Shown piece by piece: positions 2,065 to 34,722 of a stretch of DNA of 64,000 bases; the stretch's first letter is position 1, and each line of letters starts with the position of its first letter. The position numbers and the translations under genes are program-made. This stretch comes from Pseudovirgaria hyperparasitica. Its lineage: Eukaryota. The notes beneath the pieces are model-generated. The model made no database searches. It was given only the letters and a program-made list of their open reading frames with translations, and had not been told where the DNA came from. Where the stretch lies: NCBI GenBank assembly GCA_010093815.1, contig ML996574.1; one strand, 5' to 3'.

Positions 2065-3082
2065 CGGCGAAGGGGCTTCGAATGTCTCCGGACAAGATGT
2101 AGGCAGTCTCGGGCCGCGACGGAACACCTCGATTGACCATAAGAACGTAATGAGAAGCTGGATTCGGGCTACTTACAACCCTCTGGAGTGACCATGGTCT
2201 TTTCTCTTGGTCTTCACCCCTCAATACATTGAGGGACGTCGACATCTTACGAGGTAGCCGGCTCAAAGCAGACAAGACCTCTCGCGGCACCGTAGCGGAC
2301 CTGATCAGCCGAACTGCTCATTAAAAGTGTGCCTGTGACGTAATAATGTAGAGTCGACCCAGATGACTCTCTGGAATAGAATCTAGGGTTGCTAGCCTCT
2401 ATGATGTAGTGATTGACCTCATTGAATGACTTGTTAATGCAATTGACTAGACGAAGTTGTTCTCTGCAACCATCTGATGGTGTACCAGAATAACTGGCTT
2501 AGAGATCATCGGCCCAGGTATTCACTGGCTTTAGGCCAGAGCCATGAAAGCTTAAGGTACAATTCCCTCAAATGTTCACTTCCAGCGACCAAAAATGAAT
2601 CTATGAATGCAAACCGCCCGGCGATCACCTTCTAAAGCAAGTCCCTGCAAGTGCACAGTCATACCAAATAAACCAAGAAACGGTTCTCTATGCTAAATAA
2701 ACATGCTTCTTCTCCACCCGTTCCACAACACCAGTGCTTATTTTGTCGGCTCCTCGTTTGAAGTTTGAACGAACTCCTCATGGAGCTCTCTACCAGTTAT
2801 CTCGGACGCTGAGGCAACAAAAGAAATGTCCCATGCCAGAGTCGAACTGGCGGCCTTCGGATAACCGCACTCTGTGAGTACATCATATGATAGAATATGA
2901 GACCGACGTCATAACCAACTAGACCAATGAGACGTCTAGACCTTCTGCGCTGGGGATGAGTATTATATATGAGTGACACGCTGCGGCGTTACGATTCGAC
3001 AGCTTAGTAGACCACGCATAAGGTGTGGAACCAAATGGAAAAAGAAAAAAAATTCTTCACGAATATGTCCTGGAAATGTTAT

Positions 3083-3090: not shown

Positions 3091-3173
3091 TGCCGCTTCT
3101 CGGAATCGAACCGAGGGTCTTCACATGGCGTAGGGATACGAGTGTGACGCGTTAGCCACTGCGCTAAAGCGGC
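3091..3173 (-). tRNA. tRNA-Thr(CGU) with 10-nt intron
   Basis: Minus strand GCCGCTT-TA-GCGCAGTGGCTAACGCG-TCACA-CT-CGT-A-[TCCCTACGCC]-A-TGTGA-AGAC-CCTCGGTTCGATTCCGAGA-AGCGGC-A. Acceptor GCCGCTT/AAGCGGC, anticodon stem TCACA/TGTGA, intron 3127-3136 after position 37, B box GGTTCGATTCC. Confidence 0.93.
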
Positions 3174-23536: not shown

Positions 23537-25966
23537 ATGGACAAAGACGCGGCAAGAACCTCACAAGACGAAGCTGCAAATGGGGCCACAACAACAGCTG
23601 CATCATCAAGACCCGGAATGTCTCCCGGGGATGAAGAAAATAAATTCCAGAAGGCTATCGCAGCGTGGCGCAGTACGTACTACAACGTAAATCTACGACA
23701 CCAAAGCTGACCTGTGTTGATTAGACATCGATCTGACTACCTTGGTTCCCACCCTTGATACTGCTGCCTATGATCTGAATGCGAATCAGCGTGATACTTT
23801 GACACAACGGAAGGATCTTGCCCAAAAGACGAAGGAATTTAGGAAACTTGACGATGCCGGCAAACTGGCTGAGATCAAAGGACTACTGAAATGTATGGCC
23901 TGACCGATTCAATACAGCTTTATGGGAGACTAGCTGACTGGTCTCAGCATATCAGACGTTCATTGACCTGATCTCGAACCAATCCAAAAGCATATCAACT
24001 GCGTTCTTCCAGGTGTACACTCCCTTGTCTGAAGCCCCTGATCCATACCCACTCCTCGAAGCCTCGGTTGAATCACTAGTCACATCTATTGATACCGTTC
24101 CAAGGCTCGAGAAAGAAAATCAGGAGCTACACAAAAATGTGAAGGCTCTATCGACACAGCTTGAGGAAACGGAGGTGAAGCTACAGGAGGAACGTACCAC
24201 AAGGCAGGCTTTGGAAGAGACTCGTGATTCAGAAGTAAAGGAGATCGAGTCTACATGGTCAGCGGTCTTGGGCGAGAAACAAGACAACTGCGATGCAAAA
24301 GTAAAGAGCTTAGAAGACAAGTTAGAGAGCCAGGATAGACTCCTAAAAGAAATCAAAGCTAGCTACGAAGTCTCCCAGCGGCTTGACAGAGGCGAAGAGG
24401 CAGAGAATGAAGGTGCCCGAAGTAGTGCAACCGCCGCTGAATTGGAAGTTGTCAGCTCGGAGCTAGAGAGAACAAATCTGCGATTAGCGGACGTAGAGGC
24501 AAGGAATGAGCAGCTACGCCTGGAACTAGCCCAATCTGCTTCACAGTCACACCGTACCCGACCTGAGGCTGTTGAAGATGACCCGGTTTACCAGCGGTTG
24601 CAATCCGAGAACCAGATCTTGCTGCGCAAGCTTGGAACTACCCGCCTTGAGAAGGAGTCCGAAAACAGAAGAATTGAAGGCGAGATTAGAACACTAGAGC
24701 GAGAGATTACGACTCTCAAGAAAGATCGCGACTCTTTAAAAGATAAAGTGCAGAAGTGGGGTGACTATGAGAACGTCAAACAAGAGCTCGAGGTCCTAAA
24801 GGTACGTCAAGCCGCTGCGGGCACTTGCGTAAACTAATAAGTATCAGTCGATCGAGTTCGCCACAGGCGATGATGATGAGGAAGCTGATCTTGACACAAC
24901 ATCCGACCAGAGTGAGCAGCCAAATGGCTCCGCAAGCACGAGCAAGGGAGATACCCTGGAGCAATTACTTCTCACGCGCAACAAGAAGCTCACGAATGAG
25001 CTTACTGTGCTGCGCGTCTCACATCAGGATCTTCAGAACAGGCTCGAGACCCTGCAAGAAGAGCTTTCAAATACCAACATGGACTTGGAAAAGTCGAGGG
25101 CTCTGACCGCAACACTGGAGAACGATCTCGAAAAGGTTCAACAGGAAGCTACCAATGCCTTTGATTCTTCGGCTATGTCTGTAGCAGGGACGTATACGTC
25201 AAGGTACCCTGGCACAGCCTATGGAAGTCGACGAGGTAGGGCCTCCTCCCCAACTTCGTCTATTATCTCTGGGTTCGACAACTCAGGGCCGAAATCAACG
25301 CTCGATGCAATCCGAGCTGGAGAACCAGTAGGTGGTGGCTCTGGTATATTGCCCATGATCACTGCTCAGCGCGATCGCTTCAAGAAGAAGAATACTGAAC
25401 TAGAGTCTGAGCTTTCCAAGGCCCATCAATCAGTGTCATCGCTTCGCTCTGAGGTCGCCTCCTTACAGAAAGACAATCTGAATCTTTACGAAAAGACTCG
25501 TTATGTGTCGACATACAACCGTGGCGCGACTTCATCCTCAGCATATTCAAATGCAAATCCTTCCGCCATCCAAATGACCTCCAACACCTCGTCCGGTCTG
25601 ACTACCGACCGATATCGATCTGCTTACGAGTCTTCTATCTCGCCATTCGCAGCCTTTCGTGGACGAGAAAGCGCCCGCGCTATAAAACGTATGAGCTTAC
25701 CTGAACGGATAGTTTTCAGAATTACGCGGCTGGTATTAGCGACACGTGCGAGTCGAAACCTTTTTGCTTTCTATTGCATGGCATTACATATCCTGGTCTT
25801 TATGATGCTTTACTGGATGAGCACAGTGGAAATTGAACAACGTAGTAGTGGTTTAAGCAGCGGAACTGCTGCTGCAATGCAAGCTGTCGCAGACGGCGCC
25901 TTGTCAGGTAAGGAGGATCTGGCTGGCAAGGAGTGGCATCAAGAAAGTTTCCAAGAAGGGGGATAG
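23537..25966 (+). CDS. COY1: Golgi coiled-coil membrane protein CASP/Coy1 (4 exons)
   Basis: ATG 23537; FQKAIAAWRNIDL, RKDLAQKTKEFRKL, YQTFID, LSEAPDPYPLLEA, long coiled coil, ILPMITAQRDRF, LQKDNLNLYEKTRY, YESSISPFAAF and a C-terminal TM (FYCMALHILVF). Three short GT-AG introns. Confidence 0.9.
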
Positions 25967-26607: not shown

Positions 26608-27388
26608 TCAGTGGTAGAAGTAGTAATTTGCCGCATATTGGACCTGAAACGTCGCAGCTTGTCCGTCACATGTCTTGGGTGCAACACCACCCGCGGTATC
26701 TACACGGTACACCTCCTTGTAATTACCCTCCACCGCCGTTAGTCGCAGCCACGGCACGCTGCCGAGGCCATTGTATCCCTTTGCTGCGTCCCCTGGCGCA
26801 GGCGTCTTGACCGCGTTCTTGCCGTCGCACATGACGGTGCCAAACTCGTGGTTTGCGGTGTCGAGGTTGAAGAAAGGTGTTGTGAGGCTAGTGAAGAGAT
26901 GGTGGCCGCTCATGAGCATGTCAACGTTGTCGGCAGCGCGAGTGGAGACGGGGACTGGGAGGGAGAGTGCCACACGAGGGAGCCAGTGGATTAGATTCGA
27001 GGATTGAGCCGCGGCGCAGGTCATGTTGAACAATGTGGCGATGGCGCCGCCGGCTTTTGGCGCAGAGGATGGGTTTGATGTATCGCATGTGTAGTTCTGG
27101 GTGCCACGACCTAGGGCGACATGGGCGAGTGTAAGGCCTTCTGAAGGGGGACCGAGGGCTTCAAAGCCTGTGGGAAATTGATTAACTATGCGTAGAGGAA
27201 AAAGAGAGACGGGACTAACCTTGAGGTAATTGTGCTTGTGAAGGATCACACACAGCCATACCAGTGCGTAAAGCGTCAGAGCCGCGCCGGGCGATTGAGT
27301 CCAGCCAGTTCAAGTTGAAGCTTCCACCAGGGAGAGCAGCAACGAGAGGAATAGCAGCAACAAGGGTGAGGATACTCGAGCAGCGCAT
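26608..27388 (-). CDS. Secreted DUF3455-family protein (~242 aa, 2 exons)
   Basis: Signal peptide MRCSSILTLVAAIPLVAA; intron 27219-27168; motifs ALGRGTQNYTC, GAIATLF, GHHLF, VPWLRL, VYRVDTAGG, VQYAANYYFY. Confidence 0.85.
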
Positions 27389-30300
27389 GATGTAGAGCGT
27401 CAAATACTGTCGGATATCTGGAGAAGAAGGTTGATCAAAAGGGAAGCAAGGAGAGTAAATAGAAAACAAGAAACCCCAAAGCAAACGCGCAATCAATGCA
27501 ACAGGAATGATGAATGTATGACACTGCAATCGAAGCGGTCGGAACAATTCCTTATATGTTTTCTCCTCTGCTCCACAAGATCAAGGTTGCCAAACGAGGT
27601 CCGTCCAGAAATCCAGTTTTTCCCCAGCGCGTACGGATGGCAAAAATAACCAGCCGCGCACAAGCCAATCAACGCGCTTGCCGGGCTAAAGCGCTAGTGT
27701 CACCCCCTGATGCTTCTGCCAGGATTATGAGGCCAAGCTCATTAGCTCCCGTAGCTAGCGCACGGCAATCTGACCCAAAAATAGCAATGCTGAGAGATAC
27801 ACAATCTGTGAGCTGTGATAGGTCAAGGATGCCAGAGTTCGACTGGTAGAGATCGGGTGGGTGCTTTGACAACGGGAATGCAAGGATCGAGTGGAACCAA
27901 TGCCCATGTGCGTTCTGCGTTCTGGTCATCTTCTTCGACGCGCCGTGTGGCTGGTGAGCAGGGTGGGCTAAGAAGCATACGGTCCGTAGGGTTGCGCAAT
28001 GTGTTGTCGATGTCTTGGCTAATGATATTTTGTGCTCATGAGCCGTGAGGTTGTTGACAATCTGAGTCCAGTCGTTCTTCGTGGCGGTAAATGCCGAGTA
28101 CGGCTCGGCAATGGATGAAAAGTTCCGGACCGGGGAGTTCAGTGCGCATAATAACTTTCTCCGTCACGCTTCCTCAAGGAAGATTGTTTAATAGTCCTCT
28201 GAAGACCATATTTGGTATCCCATATTCGTACTCGTCTAGAGACCTACGTCAAAAAGACACTAGCTTGGACACCGGTCTCAAGGCTCATCGCGCTATTGCA
28301 GATTTCGCGCCGTGAAAAGGCATTGACAGTTTGACACCATGGTTTCCACGGGCCAAGCCGCCGAACACGTCTTCGAGGGCTTCTATGAGCCGCACGCGCT
28401 GGCACCGTGCCACCATGCGATTCTGCGTTGTCGAAGACCCACACGCAAGCCGAAGTCGCCAGCACGACGACGACCATGATAAAGACCGCTAATTGCACTA
28501 CCTAAGAGGATATATTAGCATTCAATAGATGTCCATTATTCAGCCCATGGATGAGATCGTCCAATCGCTGCCGTGGATCACGGTTCCCTTGTACCCGCTA
28601 AGTCAAACTAAGAAAGCAATCTCGATGAGCGCTTCAATGAAGGTTCTGATTGGACGGACGCTTCGGATGTTTCACGACATATCCGCAACGACTCTTCACT
28701 CGATAGGAGCTTCACAGAAACAAGGTGGACGTGGTGGTGGGTTGCGCAATACTTATGCGGTGACCATGTTAATATGCGGCTGATAGTAAGAGATTGCGTG
28801 GTTCCTTTTGTCGCGTGCACAATCTATCAATGGATTATGCTGGCCTGTTCAAACGTCGTCATTCGTAGCGTTACTAATGGTGAAGCAAGCTGTACGTGGG
28901 AAGCTACTGAATTCGTGATATCTGCAAGATCCTAGTGTCCAAATTTGAAGTTCATATCGTGCTCGAGCATAAATGGATCCCGAGTTCTGTTCATGACATG
29001 TCGTATCACTTGTGCTAATGACATGGAAAAAGCAATAACTATATTAGCCTTGTTGGATAGGTCCACAATTTTCAAGTTACTAGTCAAAGCACGTCTGGCA
29101 GGCATGACAGTGTTGGAAAAACAACTTGGGAACCGTCGCTGTGCCCAGCATACGTCGAGGCAAATGGCTATAGATTATTCGCATGCGAGCAGAGCCAATA
29201 ACAGCACTCTTGCATTCACTTTCTTCATCAATTCCCATTTTCACGCATTGGCATATAAAGCCGCCGATCTATCATTTATACTCCCGGAGTCCCGGATATG
29301 CTCTGGTCAGGTTTCAAAGAGTCGTGATAGAAGAGGTCATATGCACAAAGTGAATCGGAGAAGGCCATGTGCTGCTGTGGTTTGTAGCACAGGATTCCAA
29401 CTCATCATGTACGTCCATTCTTTGACATTCGTGGGCATACAAAGCCCTGACTGCCCTGCACATGAAGAGCCTTGTTCTTGTAGTGATCATTGTTGTTGCT
29501 TTATAAGCCCCTTGTAGACCTTACACCTGCATCAGGCTGTACTTTGCATAGTATTGGATATATGCTAGATCTATATAACATTTCATAGGTTCTTTGAAGA
29601 GATGCATTCGGCTGTGCTTCAGCTCCTCAAACTTATCGTCCAACACGTTTTCGAGACGGTGGCGTATCCGTATGCTGAATAGTGGATTTAAGATCAAGGA
29701 CGATGAGTACTTCATGGAACGCTATGTGTCTTTCGTCGGTACGTAGAGAACAACGACAGCAGAGGCCTACTTGCAGATCCTACTCACTCACGACCAACTT
29801 TATACACAAATTGAAAGCTTCGATGAGAGCGATCTTTGGGATGTGCCACTCGCATCGGGGCAGGCTTTTCGATCACAATTTCTTGTGCAAATTGGATGAG
29901 ACTCGCCTGTGTTCATCTGGCCATCAAAATCGTATCACGATCCAATGAGCATGAACAGTCTTGATCTCGCGTCGAGACTCATCCAATACCTGCCTGGTGG
30001 AGATCTTCCTGTCTCTTATCTACCAATGATCATGCCTCTCATATTCTGTCGTCTTTTGTCTCACGCCATCGATGAACAATGCAATTTTCGGGCCTCTCCT
30101 AATCGTGTCCACCGCTTGGGAGTTATGGCAATCATCACCGCTACGAGAGATCCTGTCTGTACGCTGGAACGCGAGAGAAGTATGTATTGAGCGGCCGGTA
30201 TGAACGAGGAGACAAGTAGAGAGGCATTATGCCGGGCGTGATTGCCGTTGAGAAAAGTCGAGTTTATCAGCATGGACGAGACGCTCATATCTGGGAGCGA

Positions 30301-30430
30301 TCGAGCTGGACGTCAGGTAGGACAGGGCAATCAGTCAATGAGAGCGGCAGCAGCAAGAACAACGACGAAAGAGCAATGAACCCAAGCCGAAATCAAACCG
30401 AAAAATGGGCGCTCAAAATTCAAAACAAAA

Positions 30431-30562
30431 GCTCATGCCCGGAATCGAACCGGAGATCATGCGCCTCTGCGCCCCTGCAGATACTTAGCTCCTTCATCTG
30501 GTGCTTTTCTTCAGTGGTAGGTCAGGTCATTAACCAACTAGACTATTCTCCCACTGGGGCTT
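30431..30562 (-). ncRNA. Putative Pol III-transcribed tRNA-like structured RNA (not a canonical tRNA)
   Basis: Upstream TATAA (30590-30586), A box TAGTCTAGTTGG (30545-30534), B box GGTTCGATTCC (30451-30441) in a T-arm, followed by TTTTGTTTTG. No acceptor or anticodon stem can be formed. Confidence 0.6.
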
Positions 30563-30785
30563 GCATTCTTCGGTGAATAGAAAACTTATAAAGGATGTGT
30601 GTGGAACGCTACAGCCAATGAACAGAAGTCCTGAAGACGAACACAATGTACACTCGAATATGTTAAGTGAAGTACGTAGGGGTATCTGATCCACAACAAA
30701 ATGAAAACGCTAAAATCCTCAAATTAGCTCCTGGCAATGGTCCAACGCAGTGAACAGACAATGGCCATCCTTCGCTAAAACACGT

Positions 30786-32666
30786 TCATCCGATCATATT
30801 ACTCCAAGTGCTGCGCAAAGAGCCAAATATGCGTCGCCCAAAATCTCCAATTTTTGCACCAAAAACTGCTGCAGGCTTGGTCGCAAGCTGTGCTTCAAGG
30901 TCTATGATCTGCTCTAGATGCCTCTGCTGATTCGAAGCAAAGAATTTATTTCGAGCGCTCGAGTTTGATAACTCGACTTGGGTTTGCAGCAACGAGATCT
31001 GTAGGCTTTCAAGTTGAACCCTTAGCTTTCTCTCTCTTTCTTTGCCTCTTTCATCGTTCATAGTAAGAATCCCTTCTAGCTTTGTATTGATGGTCTCCTG
31101 AGTAACGAGCTTTGCCTTCAGGCCTGCCATATCGGACTCATGGCGTGCAACTATCGGATCCCATTCTTCGCGGAGCTTGTAAGTGATATCGCGCTCGTTC
31201 ATGAGTTGTTGTCGAAGTGATATAATCTCCTCGAGGAGCATCGTTTCGGTGCGGAAATCAGTCCCAATAGCCGTCCCTAGTGAGAGCTTTTGAAACTGCA
31301 GTGGTTGGGGAAGATCTTCGATGGCATCAGAGTTCACACTGTCACGTCTGCCTAATGATATGTTGTCGTCTTCGGTGTATGCAGCCGAAAAGCGTTCGTC
31401 ACGGGGACGAGCACGAGCCCGAGTGCTGCCACCAAGTATGTTGTCCTGGGCGAGACTACGTAGCGTTTCTATTTCTGATATCAGTTCTCTTCGTCTTTGT
31501 AACTCGGCTTCTATCTGCTTCTTTAGGCGATTCGTGGATGCTTCGTATGCCAGAGATTGGGCATGGTAGTGTTCACGCTGACGAACGGCTTCATTCTCCG
31601 CATCGTGTGCCGTTACTAAGCTTTGACGAAGCTGTTCTGATTTACGAAGTTCAGTCGCTAGCCTTGCTTCGAGCGCACTGATCCGAGCCACAAGGCTGTA
31701 TTCACTATTACCTACTTTTTCCAGATCCTCTCTTAGCTGTTTAGTGTTTCTGCTTTCACTGTCGAGCTGTGCTGTAAGACGATCGATCTTGTTGACCAGC
31801 GTAAGATTCTTCGCGGCTTTCTCCGTCATCTCACTCTCGTATTTCTTCAAGACCACCGACTTGTCTGCAATGTCGGCCTGTAGTGCTTCGATCAGATGGT
31901 CTTGGCTGGTTTGAAGATCCTCGACAGCGGCCCGCCCTTGTTGTAGGACTTGTTGATACTCTCGGGCAGATTCGCGTTCTTGTGCAAGTTCGGCATTGAA
32001 CTCAGCTTTTTGGTATTCTAGGAATGTTCGCAGCTCCTCTGCATCACGTGCACGCTCAGCGTAGGCAATTTCGAGTTGATTGATACGCGTTTTGAGGTTT
32101 TCGTTGTCTACTTCTGCTTGCTGCAATCCTTGCTCGTGTCCAAGTCTTCCTGGCGGAGTGGAGAGGCGGAAGAACATGTGACGGTCTATTTCATGAATCT
32201 CGGATACAGTGCTTTCGGAGCTGTCCGAGAGCGCAAGATGCACAGGCTCGCTCGAGGAGTAGACGATTTCTTGCAAGCGACTCTTTTCATGTCGCTCAGC
32301 AGCGAGCTTCCCGATCAGCCGGAGATTCTCAGTGCGCAGTCTTTGGCTATCTTCGTAATTGCGAGCCTCTTCGTATACTTTGCGTTTCCACTTGGCGACG
32401 ACCTCGACCTTCTGATTTGAATGAACAGATGGACAAAGGCATAGTTTGGCTAGTTTTGATAGGGCTATGGCGGAGTCGCATGGGGAGAATGCCATCATGT
32501 TATTGATCATGATGCGGATCTGTACAAGATCCGAGTCGGGTATCTTGTACTGGCATCGAGCATTCCAGCGCGAGACTGAGCGCCCGACACAGCAAAGGAC
32601 GCCTTCGCCATCTTGGTGAGAGTTGAGGTTGAGAGTCTGGTAGGGATCCCAAATTTGGCGCGTCAT
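30786..32666 (-). CDS. Hypothetical coiled-coil protein with N-terminal Cys/His motif
   Basis: 626-aa single-exon ORF with ATG start. E/Q/L/K/R-rich heptad pattern over most of its length; N-terminal CCVG...RC...LCLC..VH motif. Confidence 0.8.
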   Translation of the reverse strand: MTRQIWDPYQTLNLNSHQDGEGVLCCVGRSVSRWNARCQYKIPDSDLVQIRIMINNMMAFSPCDSAIALSKLAKLCLCPSVHSNQKVEVVAKWKRKVYEEARNYEDSQRLRTENLRLIGKLAAERHEKSRLQEIVYSSSEPVHLALSDSSESTVSEIHEIDRHMFFRLSTPPGRLGHEQGLQQAEVDNENLKTRINQLEIAYAERARDAEELRTFLEYQKAEFNAELAQERESAREYQQVLQQGRAAVEDLQTSQDHLIEALQADIADKSVVLKKYESEMTEKAAKNLTLVNKIDRLTAQLDSESRNTKQLREDLEKVGNSEYSLVARISALEARLATELRKSEQLRQSLVTAHDAENEAVRQREHYHAQSLAYEASTNRLKKQIEAELQRRRELISEIETLRSLAQDNILGGSTRARARPRDERFSAAYTEDDNISLGRRDSVNSDAIEDLPQPLQFQKLSLGTAIGTDFRTETMLLEEIISLRQQLMNERDITYKLREEWDPIVARHESDMAGLKAKLVTQETINTKLEGILTMNDERGKERERKLRVQLESLQISLLQTQVELSNSSARNKFFASNQQRHLEQIIDLEAQLATKPAAVFGAKIGDFGRRIFGSLRSTWSNMIG

Positions 32667-33680
32667 CGCATCAGTTCAGGAAAAAATGAAGTCTTCGGTG
32701 CGAGCATAGGGATGGGATACTGGGACGGCAGATGATTAAGGGAACTATTGGCGGTCCACATAAGGAGATATAAAAGCCCACTCAAAAGGGGAAAAACGCG
32801 GCCGTAAGTCAAGTGAAAGTACCATTATGCGTCTATAGAGACAGGTCAACAAACTCAAATATAAGTCGATCGCGAAGCTTAGAAGGATCTTCGGCAAGTC
32901 GCCTAGGATGCGAATCTTTGCGATTGGCTAACAACGAGATCACAGCCCAGTTGAATGCATGATTGCATTTGATGGTTTTGAGGTTTCAGCCCCAGGGCCT
33001 ATCGAGGTAATTGTCAAAAAAGGACTCGCCTCGTCATAGCATGAAGTATGCAGTCAGGCCTGAGAACCTTAATCAGTCAGGGTCGCGTCTTCGCTCAGGC
33101 TCTTCATCTAGGGAGGGCAGAAGAGACCAAAAATGTTTACGCTCGTGTCTTATCTTGGAAATCTATCCGTATTCCTCGTAATGCTCGTGACGCCGCAACA
33201 ATACGAGTAGCCAGCATGGTTAGCCAAGTGTTTGTCGAATGACCATCACGCTGGAGCGAGCAAAACAACATAAGACTTTTCGTGTTGATCTGGTAACGTA
33301 TAAATATACATATGACAGCTCCGTCGAGCTGGAAATTAGGACGAAAATGTTCTTCGAAGCCTGTGAGCGATGATAGAATAATCACGTCGTTTGTCTCAGG
33401 ATGAGGTCTCATACAGACTTCCAACGCCTTGGCGCGCTAGACAAAACTGCGCTCAACCCAGAGTGGATAATAGCTTAACTCACGTCAATGCATCCATTCC
33501 ATCAAAGATCGTTGACATCAACTCAAACCTGTTGCATCCAGGTGTGTCCCGCACACAAACGCCCCAAATTGCAGTCAGCTCGCAGCCTCCAGGATAATCA
33601 CTACGCGCAATATACAACAGAACCTGAAGACACCTACACAATTACCTTCCGCTAACTCACTGTACATTACCGGAGCTGCT

Positions 33681-34722
33681 ATGGCCGCACCTCCTTCGAA
33701 AGTAGACCGCCAGACTACCACGCCCTTTCTGCTGAAACTGTTTTATCGTACAGGCGCTTTTCACCGGTAAGCATGATATCCGTCGTTGTAGCGTAGTCGA
33801 TTCCTCCAAATCTGCCAACGGGCGCTCAGACTAGTCGTACCTTGTGACCACCAAGCTCTCGAAACAAGTTGAAGCTCGCCTTGACTATTGAAAGCGCAGG
33901 GCTTGATGCACTTACTTGGTACAATCGTCCTCACAAGCGTCGTCCCCATCTCCATCGAGCAAGCATCGTTACGCACAGATCGCCACGCCTCAGCCTCATA
34001 CAGAACAGGCACGGCCAGAGATACTCTGCTGACTTTACATGTACAGGAACGATGAATTCTCCCCCCAATCACATCCGATAAACCAGCATTTACAGATCTA
34101 CACGTGGCCAAACTGTACTCTCAAAGAGCTGTCGCATCTCCTCGTATCTGCCTTGCCGAATGTCTTGCCTTCACCGGCGATCGGTACACGTCTCGCCTTT
34201 CGCCTAGTATTTCCTGATACCAAGAACACCTCGGGACCACCTAGATACATGAGCAAAGATCTTGGCAGCATAGTTGTCAATGCTGAGCCCGACCCGCAAG
34301 CAAAAAATGCTCCGATGGGCGACCTCGGAGGTGATGCCGAGAAAACGCTACAAGATGCACGTTTTGTTATAGGGGACTATGTATGTTGCGCAATATTTCC
34401 ACCATTAGCGAATGGTGACGTCGCCGGACCGCCTCCACCACAAGCACCTGGTTATGGAGGTATGGGATATGGCGGACGAGGCGGGAGACCACCTCCGCGA
34501 GAGAACGGATTCGGGAGGGGTCGAGACTTCCGGCCAAGAGATCCCGACGGCTTGCCCTCCGGTGAATGGAGGCGAGGAGACATACCACCCCCTGCCCCAG
34601 CAGGCTATGGTGGGGGAGGTAGGCGTGGCAATGGCCGCTACGAAAACGACCGAGAGTATCGTGGAGGATATGGGGGTGGTGGCTATGGTCGAGCTAGAGG
34701 CCGAGGCCGCGGTGGCTACTGA
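33681..34722 (+). CDS. SAP18: Sin3-associated polypeptide SAP18 with RGG-rich tail (~253 aa, 2 exons)
   Basis: Exon 1 33681-33766 MAAPPSKVDRQTTTPFLLKLFYRTGAFHR; intron 33767-34046; exon 2 LQIYTWPNCTLKEL...RLAFRLVFPD...KDLGS...KTLQDARFVIGDYVCCAIFPP, then G/R/Y-rich C-terminus. Confidence 0.92.

Follow-up and report, generated by a model that had tools for sequence, protein, structure and literature searches.

The vault RNAs and the rodent 4.5SI RNA are small non-coding RNAs of the type-2 Pol III class that are multi-copy in some lineages, and we know of no description of either family in fungi. SINEs also keep A and B boxes and sometimes tRNA-like folds, and some plant SINEs carry T-rich tails. 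To our knowledge, few SINE-like elements have been characterised in filamentous fungi. One described case is AfuSINE2 of Aspergillus fumigatus, which according to the available text of its description is tRNA-related, 140-493 bp long and present in low copy number, with degenerate A and B boxes and without a member that folds into a cloverleaf (PMC5063351). The same text includes tRNA-Met among the source tRNAs named by its authors, and gives target-site duplications of 4-14 bp and a 5' tRNA-related head that is followed by an unrelated body (PMC5063351).

Here we describe an element at 30592-30415 on the minus strand of a 64-kb window (the whole stretch of DNA that was analysed). It is one copy of a short dispersed repeat, in which D-arm-like and T-arm-like parts stand around a conserved core of ~55 nt. 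The element has tRNA-like parts, does not fold as a tRNA, matches no known RNA family and is found at several loci with unrelated flanks.

Anatomy of the element and the tRNA genes of the window

When the sequence was re-read, all motifs listed in the preliminary description were found on the minus strand at their coordinates. From 5' to 3', the TATA-like element TTTATAAG (30592-30585) is followed by a CAAG start region (30563-30560) and by the A box TAGTCTAGTTGG (30545-30534), which is enclosed in a D-arm-like hairpin (30526-30545) of the form GTC-TAGTTGGTTAAT-GAC with its stem strands at 30543-41 and 30528-26. A conserved core unrelated to tRNA (30474-30525, ~55 nt) lies between this D arm and a T arm, TCCGG-TTCGATT-CCGGG (30454-30438), which harbours an exact B box (GGTTCGATTCC). 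The T arm is followed by the 3' acceptor-like strand CATGAGC (30437-30431), which lacks a partner beside the D arm, and by three T4 runs (30430-27, 30425-22 and 30418-15) that resemble either Pol III terminators or a T-rich tail. Both the D and the T arm keep the conserved loop residues of a nuclear tRNA gene. The anatomy of a type-2 Pol III unit that had been proposed for this locus, with an A box in a D-arm hairpin, an exact B box in a T arm and T runs, is thus present in full. The Pol III promoter boxes are intact, and activity is predicted from them. A scan for bacterial-type promoters and terminators, which is inapplicable to Pol III, returned nothing.

Two tRNA genes of the window serve for comparison. 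Once introns were allowed, ARAGORN identified a tRNA-Met(CAU) gene (intron of 33 nt) on the minus strand at 2827-2933; its acceptor strands GTCTCAT and ATGGGAC pair at 7/7 positions, including one G-U, and a TATA-like TATATAATA lies ~30 nt upstream. A tRNA-Thr(CGU) gene with an intron of 10-12 nt (3091-3173, minus strand) is located 158 nt upstream of the tRNA-Met gene, and the two form a small gene pair on the same strand. The TATA-like element of the window copy stands ~25-30 nt upstream of the unit, as it does at both of these real tRNA genes. Exact matches to GGTTCGANTCC occur twice in the window, once in the element and once in the real tRNA at 3102-3112, while ~0.1 matches are expected by chance in 128 kb (two strands). 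The D arm of the element is identical to that of tRNA-Met(CAU) (2924-2908) at 17 of 18 aligned positions, and the alignment score of 29 compares with a mean of 17.0 (sd 2.3, maximum 29) in 300 shuffles. The tRNA-like parts of the element are more than chance.

The element as a whole is not a tRNA, as had been claimed. Its would-be acceptor strands, GGGAGAA (30552-46) and CATGAGC (30437-31), form only the pair G1-C72 and one G-U, and the partner pattern GYTYRTG is absent from the minus strand between 30438 and 31411. The sole candidate for an acceptor partner is GTTCAT at 30623-18, ~75 nt before the D arm. The earlier statement that an anticodon stem is lacking even if an intron is admitted also held, since ARAGORN with introns of 0-150 nt made no call here at default, 95% or 90% thresholds. 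Subsequently, each segment of 6-124 nt of 30650-30395 was removed in turn and the remainder was submitted to ARAGORN with a canonical intron of 0-100 nt allowed; tRNA calls were obtained in 0/18668 single-deletion variants. As a positive control the deletion scan was run without introns on the intron-bearing tRNA-Met locus, where 392/12123 variants were called. This control was needed because default ARAGORN and Rfam had missed a real tRNA-Met gene with an intron.

Rfam 15 was empty for the element at the gathering score, in line with the earlier statement that it matches no described RNA family. With E values of up to 10 admitted for 30250-30750, only two plus-strand matches were obtained (U1A_PIE and bxd_4, both with E ~8), which are due to chance. 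The tRNA model RF00005 did not match in this interval even at E up to 10, a result to be read with the caveat that at the gathering score the real tRNA-Met gene, with its intron of 33 nt, escaped this model too. As default ARAGORN and Rfam at the gathering score overlooked that gene, little can be concluded in genomes of this kind from the absence of a tRNA call alone.

Dispersed copies and their variation

Contigs of four public runs (X1-X4) were aligned to 29900-31100 at 80% likeness. X1 and X2 derive from one sample, from which the window most likely also comes, and X3 and X4 belong to a second study. Both flanks of the element are single copy and are represented by long X1 contigs with depths of 326 and 310. 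These flank contigs end inside the element, one at 30473 and the other at 30530 or 30502, so that neither spans the core; such breaks are expected where 31-mers are common to several copies. The summed word depth in X1 reached 3550, 9992 and 2883 in three bins of 30433-30555, with the peak of 9992 in bin 30474-30514. Within the element this is 9-31x the depth of the flanks, summed depth being no copy number.

At least 29 X1 contigs fell on the 1.2-kb stretch, in identity classes of 17, 5, 5 and 2. At least seven of the X1 contigs fit partly, at a depth of 273-343 that equals the single-copy depth, and then run into unlike sequence. Their points of divergence are 30403, 30415, 30523, 30559 (three contigs) and 30567, so that a single genome has at least five upstream and at least two downstream contexts, each distinct. 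The listed pieces extend over 30403-30483 (5 differences in 81 nt) and 30490-30559 or 30490-30567 (0-10 differences in 66-78 nt). Because they span 30403-30483 and 30490-30567, the parts that do not resemble tRNA are repeated as well. A copy with 3 differences over 99 nt, in a further context, is present in X3 and X4; neither run has a contig for 30427-30522 as it reads in the window. Within the 64-kb window a second copy was not found. The family is seen here in part, as 36 further contig pieces exist beyond those listed.

Since the flanks are unrelated at several loci, the element is a member of a short dispersed family. As seen from the window copy, the repeat unit, i.e. the segment common to other loci, is 30403-30567 on the minus strand, and the repeat is confined to less than 200 bp. 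An upstream segment (30568-30597, minus strand), which includes the TATA-like TTTATAAG, is common to one other copy. The preliminary description had taken the locus for a unique, maintained non-coding RNA gene. This is not supported: 30403-30567 recurs at several loci with unrelated flanks, and the proposed fold is no more stable than shuffled sequence (see below). What had been called the best candidate for an undescribed system in the window is, given the dispersed copies, a probable short interspersed repeat.

The core (~30474-30525) is the best conserved part of the family. Over 30461-30523 the sole variant with a share of at least 10% is at 30508 (T>G on the plus strand), where the letter of the window is the minority form. 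The 3' side of the D arm (30524-36) differs among copies, and the D stem of at least one of them is broken (loose end at 30523, read by eye). In one other copy the T arm reads CATGG-TTCGAGC-CTGTG instead of TCCGG-TTCGATT-CCGGG; by eye, changes at 5 of the 10 stem positions leave all five pairs intact, a double compensatory change accounting for one of them.

The copies also differ at the 5' end. Directly before CCCCAG, most other copies carry a 10-nt 5' end, GTTYTCATAA (by eye, from loose ends of 30 letters), and its start, GTTYTCAT, resembles the acceptor strand GTCTCAT of tRNA-Met (by eye). In the copies diverging at 30559, the X1 consensus and the X3 copy have 9 of the last 10 letters in common, against 5 of the 20 before those (by eye). 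This sharp drop ~10 nt upstream of 30559 looks like the boundary of an element that would start with G. The window copy is unlike the GTTYTCATAA type of 5' sequence, agreeing with it at 7/30 positions in register (by eye). A single contig (record 3 of X1, identical to record 13 of X2) matches the window in the upstream segment at 17/30 positions in register, including the 9-mer CCTTTATAA (by eye), and four other upstream continuations are unlike the window at 30568-30597. As the window copy and this one sibling have a 5' end of their own that differs from that of the GTTYTCATAA copies, at least two 5' variants exist in the family. The unpaired acceptor of the window copy therefore goes back to a 5' variant without an acceptor-like strand, and the window copy would be a variant or a relic of the family.

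By eye, the 5' flank of the tRNA-Met gene (2935-2965, minus strand; CTCATCCCCAG...AGAAGGTCTAG) resembles the 5' part of the family (CTCATAACCCCAG...AGAATAGTCTAG), and GGTCTAG is present twice in this flank. Local alignment of the flank with the window copy recovered CCCCAG only, a score equalled in 515/1000 shuffles. The likeness may be due to chance, or it may be a trace of an origin of the family at the tRNA-Met locus.

At the 3' side, homology to two other copies runs through the T runs to 30415 and 30403. The 3' end consists of TTTTGTTTTGAATTTT and then unique sequence; it is T-rich and without an A-rich, simple-repeat or LINE-like tail. The best direct repeat flanking the window copy is the 8-nt GTTCATTG at 30623-30616 and 30381-30374 (minus strand), which brackets a segment of 234 nt with the element inside. 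It lies outside the limits of homology seen among the copies and was equalled in 107/500 shuffles. This check covered the flanks of the window copy, the other copies being known for 30 letters on one side only. Many dispersed copies with target-site duplications had been named earlier as the finding that would speak against a non-coding RNA gene: the dispersed copies were found and the duplications were not. The first six bases of GTTCATTG could pair with ATGAGC and resemble GTTYTCAT, and the repeat may be a duplication, a displaced acceptor strand or chance.

The element is located on the same strand as, and downstream of, a 629-codon open frame for a coiled-coil-like protein (30786-32675, minus strand), whose stop codon lies 194 nt before the TATA-like element. 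The protein matches nothing in Pfam; a search of 5.8 billion clustered proteins, confined to a range of lengths, returned the protein itself (626 aa) as the sole homologue. The gene looks lineage-specific, and as the protein has no other homologue there is no orthologous locus to compare. The neighbourhood is that of ordinary eukaryotic genes, with neighbouring frames for CASP_C (24833-25966, plus strand, E 3.8e-96), DUF3455 (26608-27309, minus strand, E 1.5e-43) and SAP18 (34033-34722, plus strand, E 1.5e-31). In X3 and X4, two runs without a recorded type, depth is 114.6 and 57.9, respectively, for the contig towards the gene, and the low-coordinate side has 5.3 in X3 and none in X4. Such a step would fit transcripts ending in or near the element, contig depth being a poor measure and the kind of run unrecorded.

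A plus-strand open frame extends over the element. Used as a translated query for further copies of the element, it yielded no candidate sharing words, and its sole HMMER match among 1.84 billion representatives, a repeat protein of 3637 aa, is spurious, with 16-26% identity per repeat and a score inflated by summing.

Origin and spread of the family

The element is short, dispersed, low in copy number and sharply bounded, and has tRNA-derived boxes, an unrelated body and no cloverleaf. This combination fits a tRNA-derived SINE, and we lean, with limited confidence, towards reading the element as a copy of a tRNA-derived SINE-like repeat of ~165-195 bp and low copy number. Its parent would be a tRNA gene, the closest in the window being the intron-bearing elongator tRNA-Met(CAU), and likeness of sequence suggests tRNA-Met as the source. 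The family would have kept the A box with the D arm and the B box with the T arm, with the ~55-nt tRNA-unrelated core in the position of the anticodon arm. Pol III transcription would start from the internal A and B boxes and read to the T runs, and retroposition would follow, with a reverse transcriptase acting in trans to turn the RNA into DNA at new sites. The window copy would in this way have inserted ~220 nt beyond the stop codon of a putatively lineage-specific gene.

Several observations stand against a SINE. The best candidate for a target-site duplication is no better than in shuffles (107/500), the 3' end is T-rich, and the A and B boxes flank the core, so that a compact 5' head is lacking. 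One copy also has 17/30 upstream positions in common with the window copy, including the TATA-like 9-mer, which would not be expected if a transcript starting downstream of the TATA were simply retroposed. Further, the compensated T stem in one copy points to selection on RNA structure.

The last two of these observations belong equally to a reading in which the copies are genuine Pol III genes, forming a multi-copy family for a tRNA-like non-coding RNA of ~130-165 nt. The core would be its functional part, and the elbow of D and T arms together with the acceptor-like stem would be kept for tRNA-type processing, export or protein binding. The intact A box, the exact B box, the T runs directly after the acceptor-like 3' strand and the conservation of the core above all other parts would agree with this, as would the TATA-like element ~25-30 nt upstream, which is in register in one other copy (by eye), and the change from TCCGG/CCGGG to CATGG/CTGTG with five pairs kept, one by a double compensatory change (by eye). 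However, A and B boxes, and at times tRNA-like folds, are kept by SINEs too. At least one copy has a disrupted D stem (by eye), the 5' ends differ, the window copy is without an acceptor partner, and homology between copies extends 12-25 nt beyond the first terminator. Rfam holds no such family, and scans of metagenomes and prokaryote genomes recovered no relative outside the species: the core 29-mer was found in 0 metagenome contigs, 0 prokaryote genome contigs and 0 papers, and the gapped pattern from A box to B box in 0 metagenome contigs.

A thermodynamic signal is also missing. The preliminary description had proposed an alternative fold with the helices GCCC/GGGC (30560-57/30474-71), CAGTGG/CCACTG (30556-51/30517-12) and CAGATG/TATCTG (30500-495/30483-78) on the minus strand. 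These helices do exist, and the first two are both present in the minimum-free-energy structure; their stability is no better than that of shuffled sequence. The 136-nt RNA folds with -38.6 kcal/mol (z -0.14), and 78/200 shuffles fold at least as well; for a 197-nt version that includes the upstream region, z is +0.55 and 134/200 shuffles fold at least as well. Among the other copies, variants with a share of at least 10% are absent from the three helices, and covariation therefore neither supports nor contradicts them. Overall, we regard a family of genuine Pol III genes as unlikely, although it deserves to be taken seriously.

Homology that outruns the putative transcript, past the T runs to 30403 and in one copy through the TATA-like element, would be explained if pseudogene fragments derived from tRNA-Met had spread as DNA, by segmental duplication, ectopic recombination or capture by a transposon, without a Pol III RNA intermediate and without function. 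At the window copy neither a target-site duplication nor a tail of the retroposon type was found, as this would predict. Yet the repeat is very short, ends abruptly and is set in unrelated flanks at five or more loci, which is unusual for segmental duplication; terminal inverted repeats were not seen at its ends, and both promoter boxes are intact. Spread at the DNA level is in our view improbable.

A bolder form of the gene-family reading would make the element part of an active Pol III gene family for a tRNA-Met-derived non-coding RNA, in which the ~55-nt core replaces the anticodon arm, compensatory changes hold the T arm, and the acceptor-like ends retain the RNA in the pathway of tRNA processing, so that the product would be a functional fungal mimic of tRNA. 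If true, this would be a kind of family undescribed in filamentous fungi, for among the best literature matches for tRNA-like Pol III RNAs such a mimic in filamentous fungi did not occur. We consider it doubtful.

That the element is instead a genuine tRNA gene with a long or oddly placed intron, overlooked by the detectors, is extremely improbable: the intron-bearing tRNA-Met(CAU) at 2827-2933 was indeed missed by default ARAGORN and by Rfam at the gathering score and found once introns were allowed, and at 80% thresholds ARAGORN can be forced to an 'Ile(tat)' with a 111-nt intron, in which GTTCATT (30623-17) pairs at 6/7 positions with CATGAGC, but this call, which we do not credit, has a poor D arm and assigns the real D-arm-like hairpin to its 'intron', an anticodon stem is lacking, and the deletion scan gave 0/18668 calls against 392/12123 in the control.

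Comparison with described systems

Read as a copy of a SINE-like repeat, the element loses the features that had seemed odd in a single locus: the unpaired acceptor is explained as a copy-specific 5' variant, and the 'new helices' as no better than chance. The layout, with A box, core and B box in that order, would still be unusual, and the T arm has at least one compensatory variant. With a gene of equal orientation ending shortly before it, the element could act as a source of Pol III binding sites or influence how 3' ends are formed.

The element resembles the vault RNAs and the rodent 4.5SI RNA in size class, internal A and B boxes, an upstream TATA-like element and a terminator of T runs. 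It differs from them in that neither a sequence match nor an Rfam match was found, and in being known from sequence alone.

With the tRNA-Met(CAU) gene it has in common the D arm (17/18), a similar T arm, a 3' acceptor strand (CATGAGC vs ATGGGAC), a TATA-like element upstream and a T-rich stretch downstream. In contrast to this gene, the window copy is without an anticodon stem-loop or acceptor pairing, ~16 extra nt precede the D arm, unrelated sequence of ~70 nt stands where the anticodon arm and the intron would be, and ARAGORN and Rfam reject the element.

AfuSINE2 was compared by its description and not by its sequence, and the element may be identical with a described one (PMC5063351). 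In contrast to AfuSINE2 as characterised in the available text, the element has its core between the A and B boxes, exact boxes, T runs at the 3' end and no duplication shown (PMC5063351). Like AfuSINE2 in that text, it is short and low in copy number, has both boxes and a region unrelated to tRNA, does not fold into a cloverleaf, and lies in a gene-rich setting (PMC5063351).
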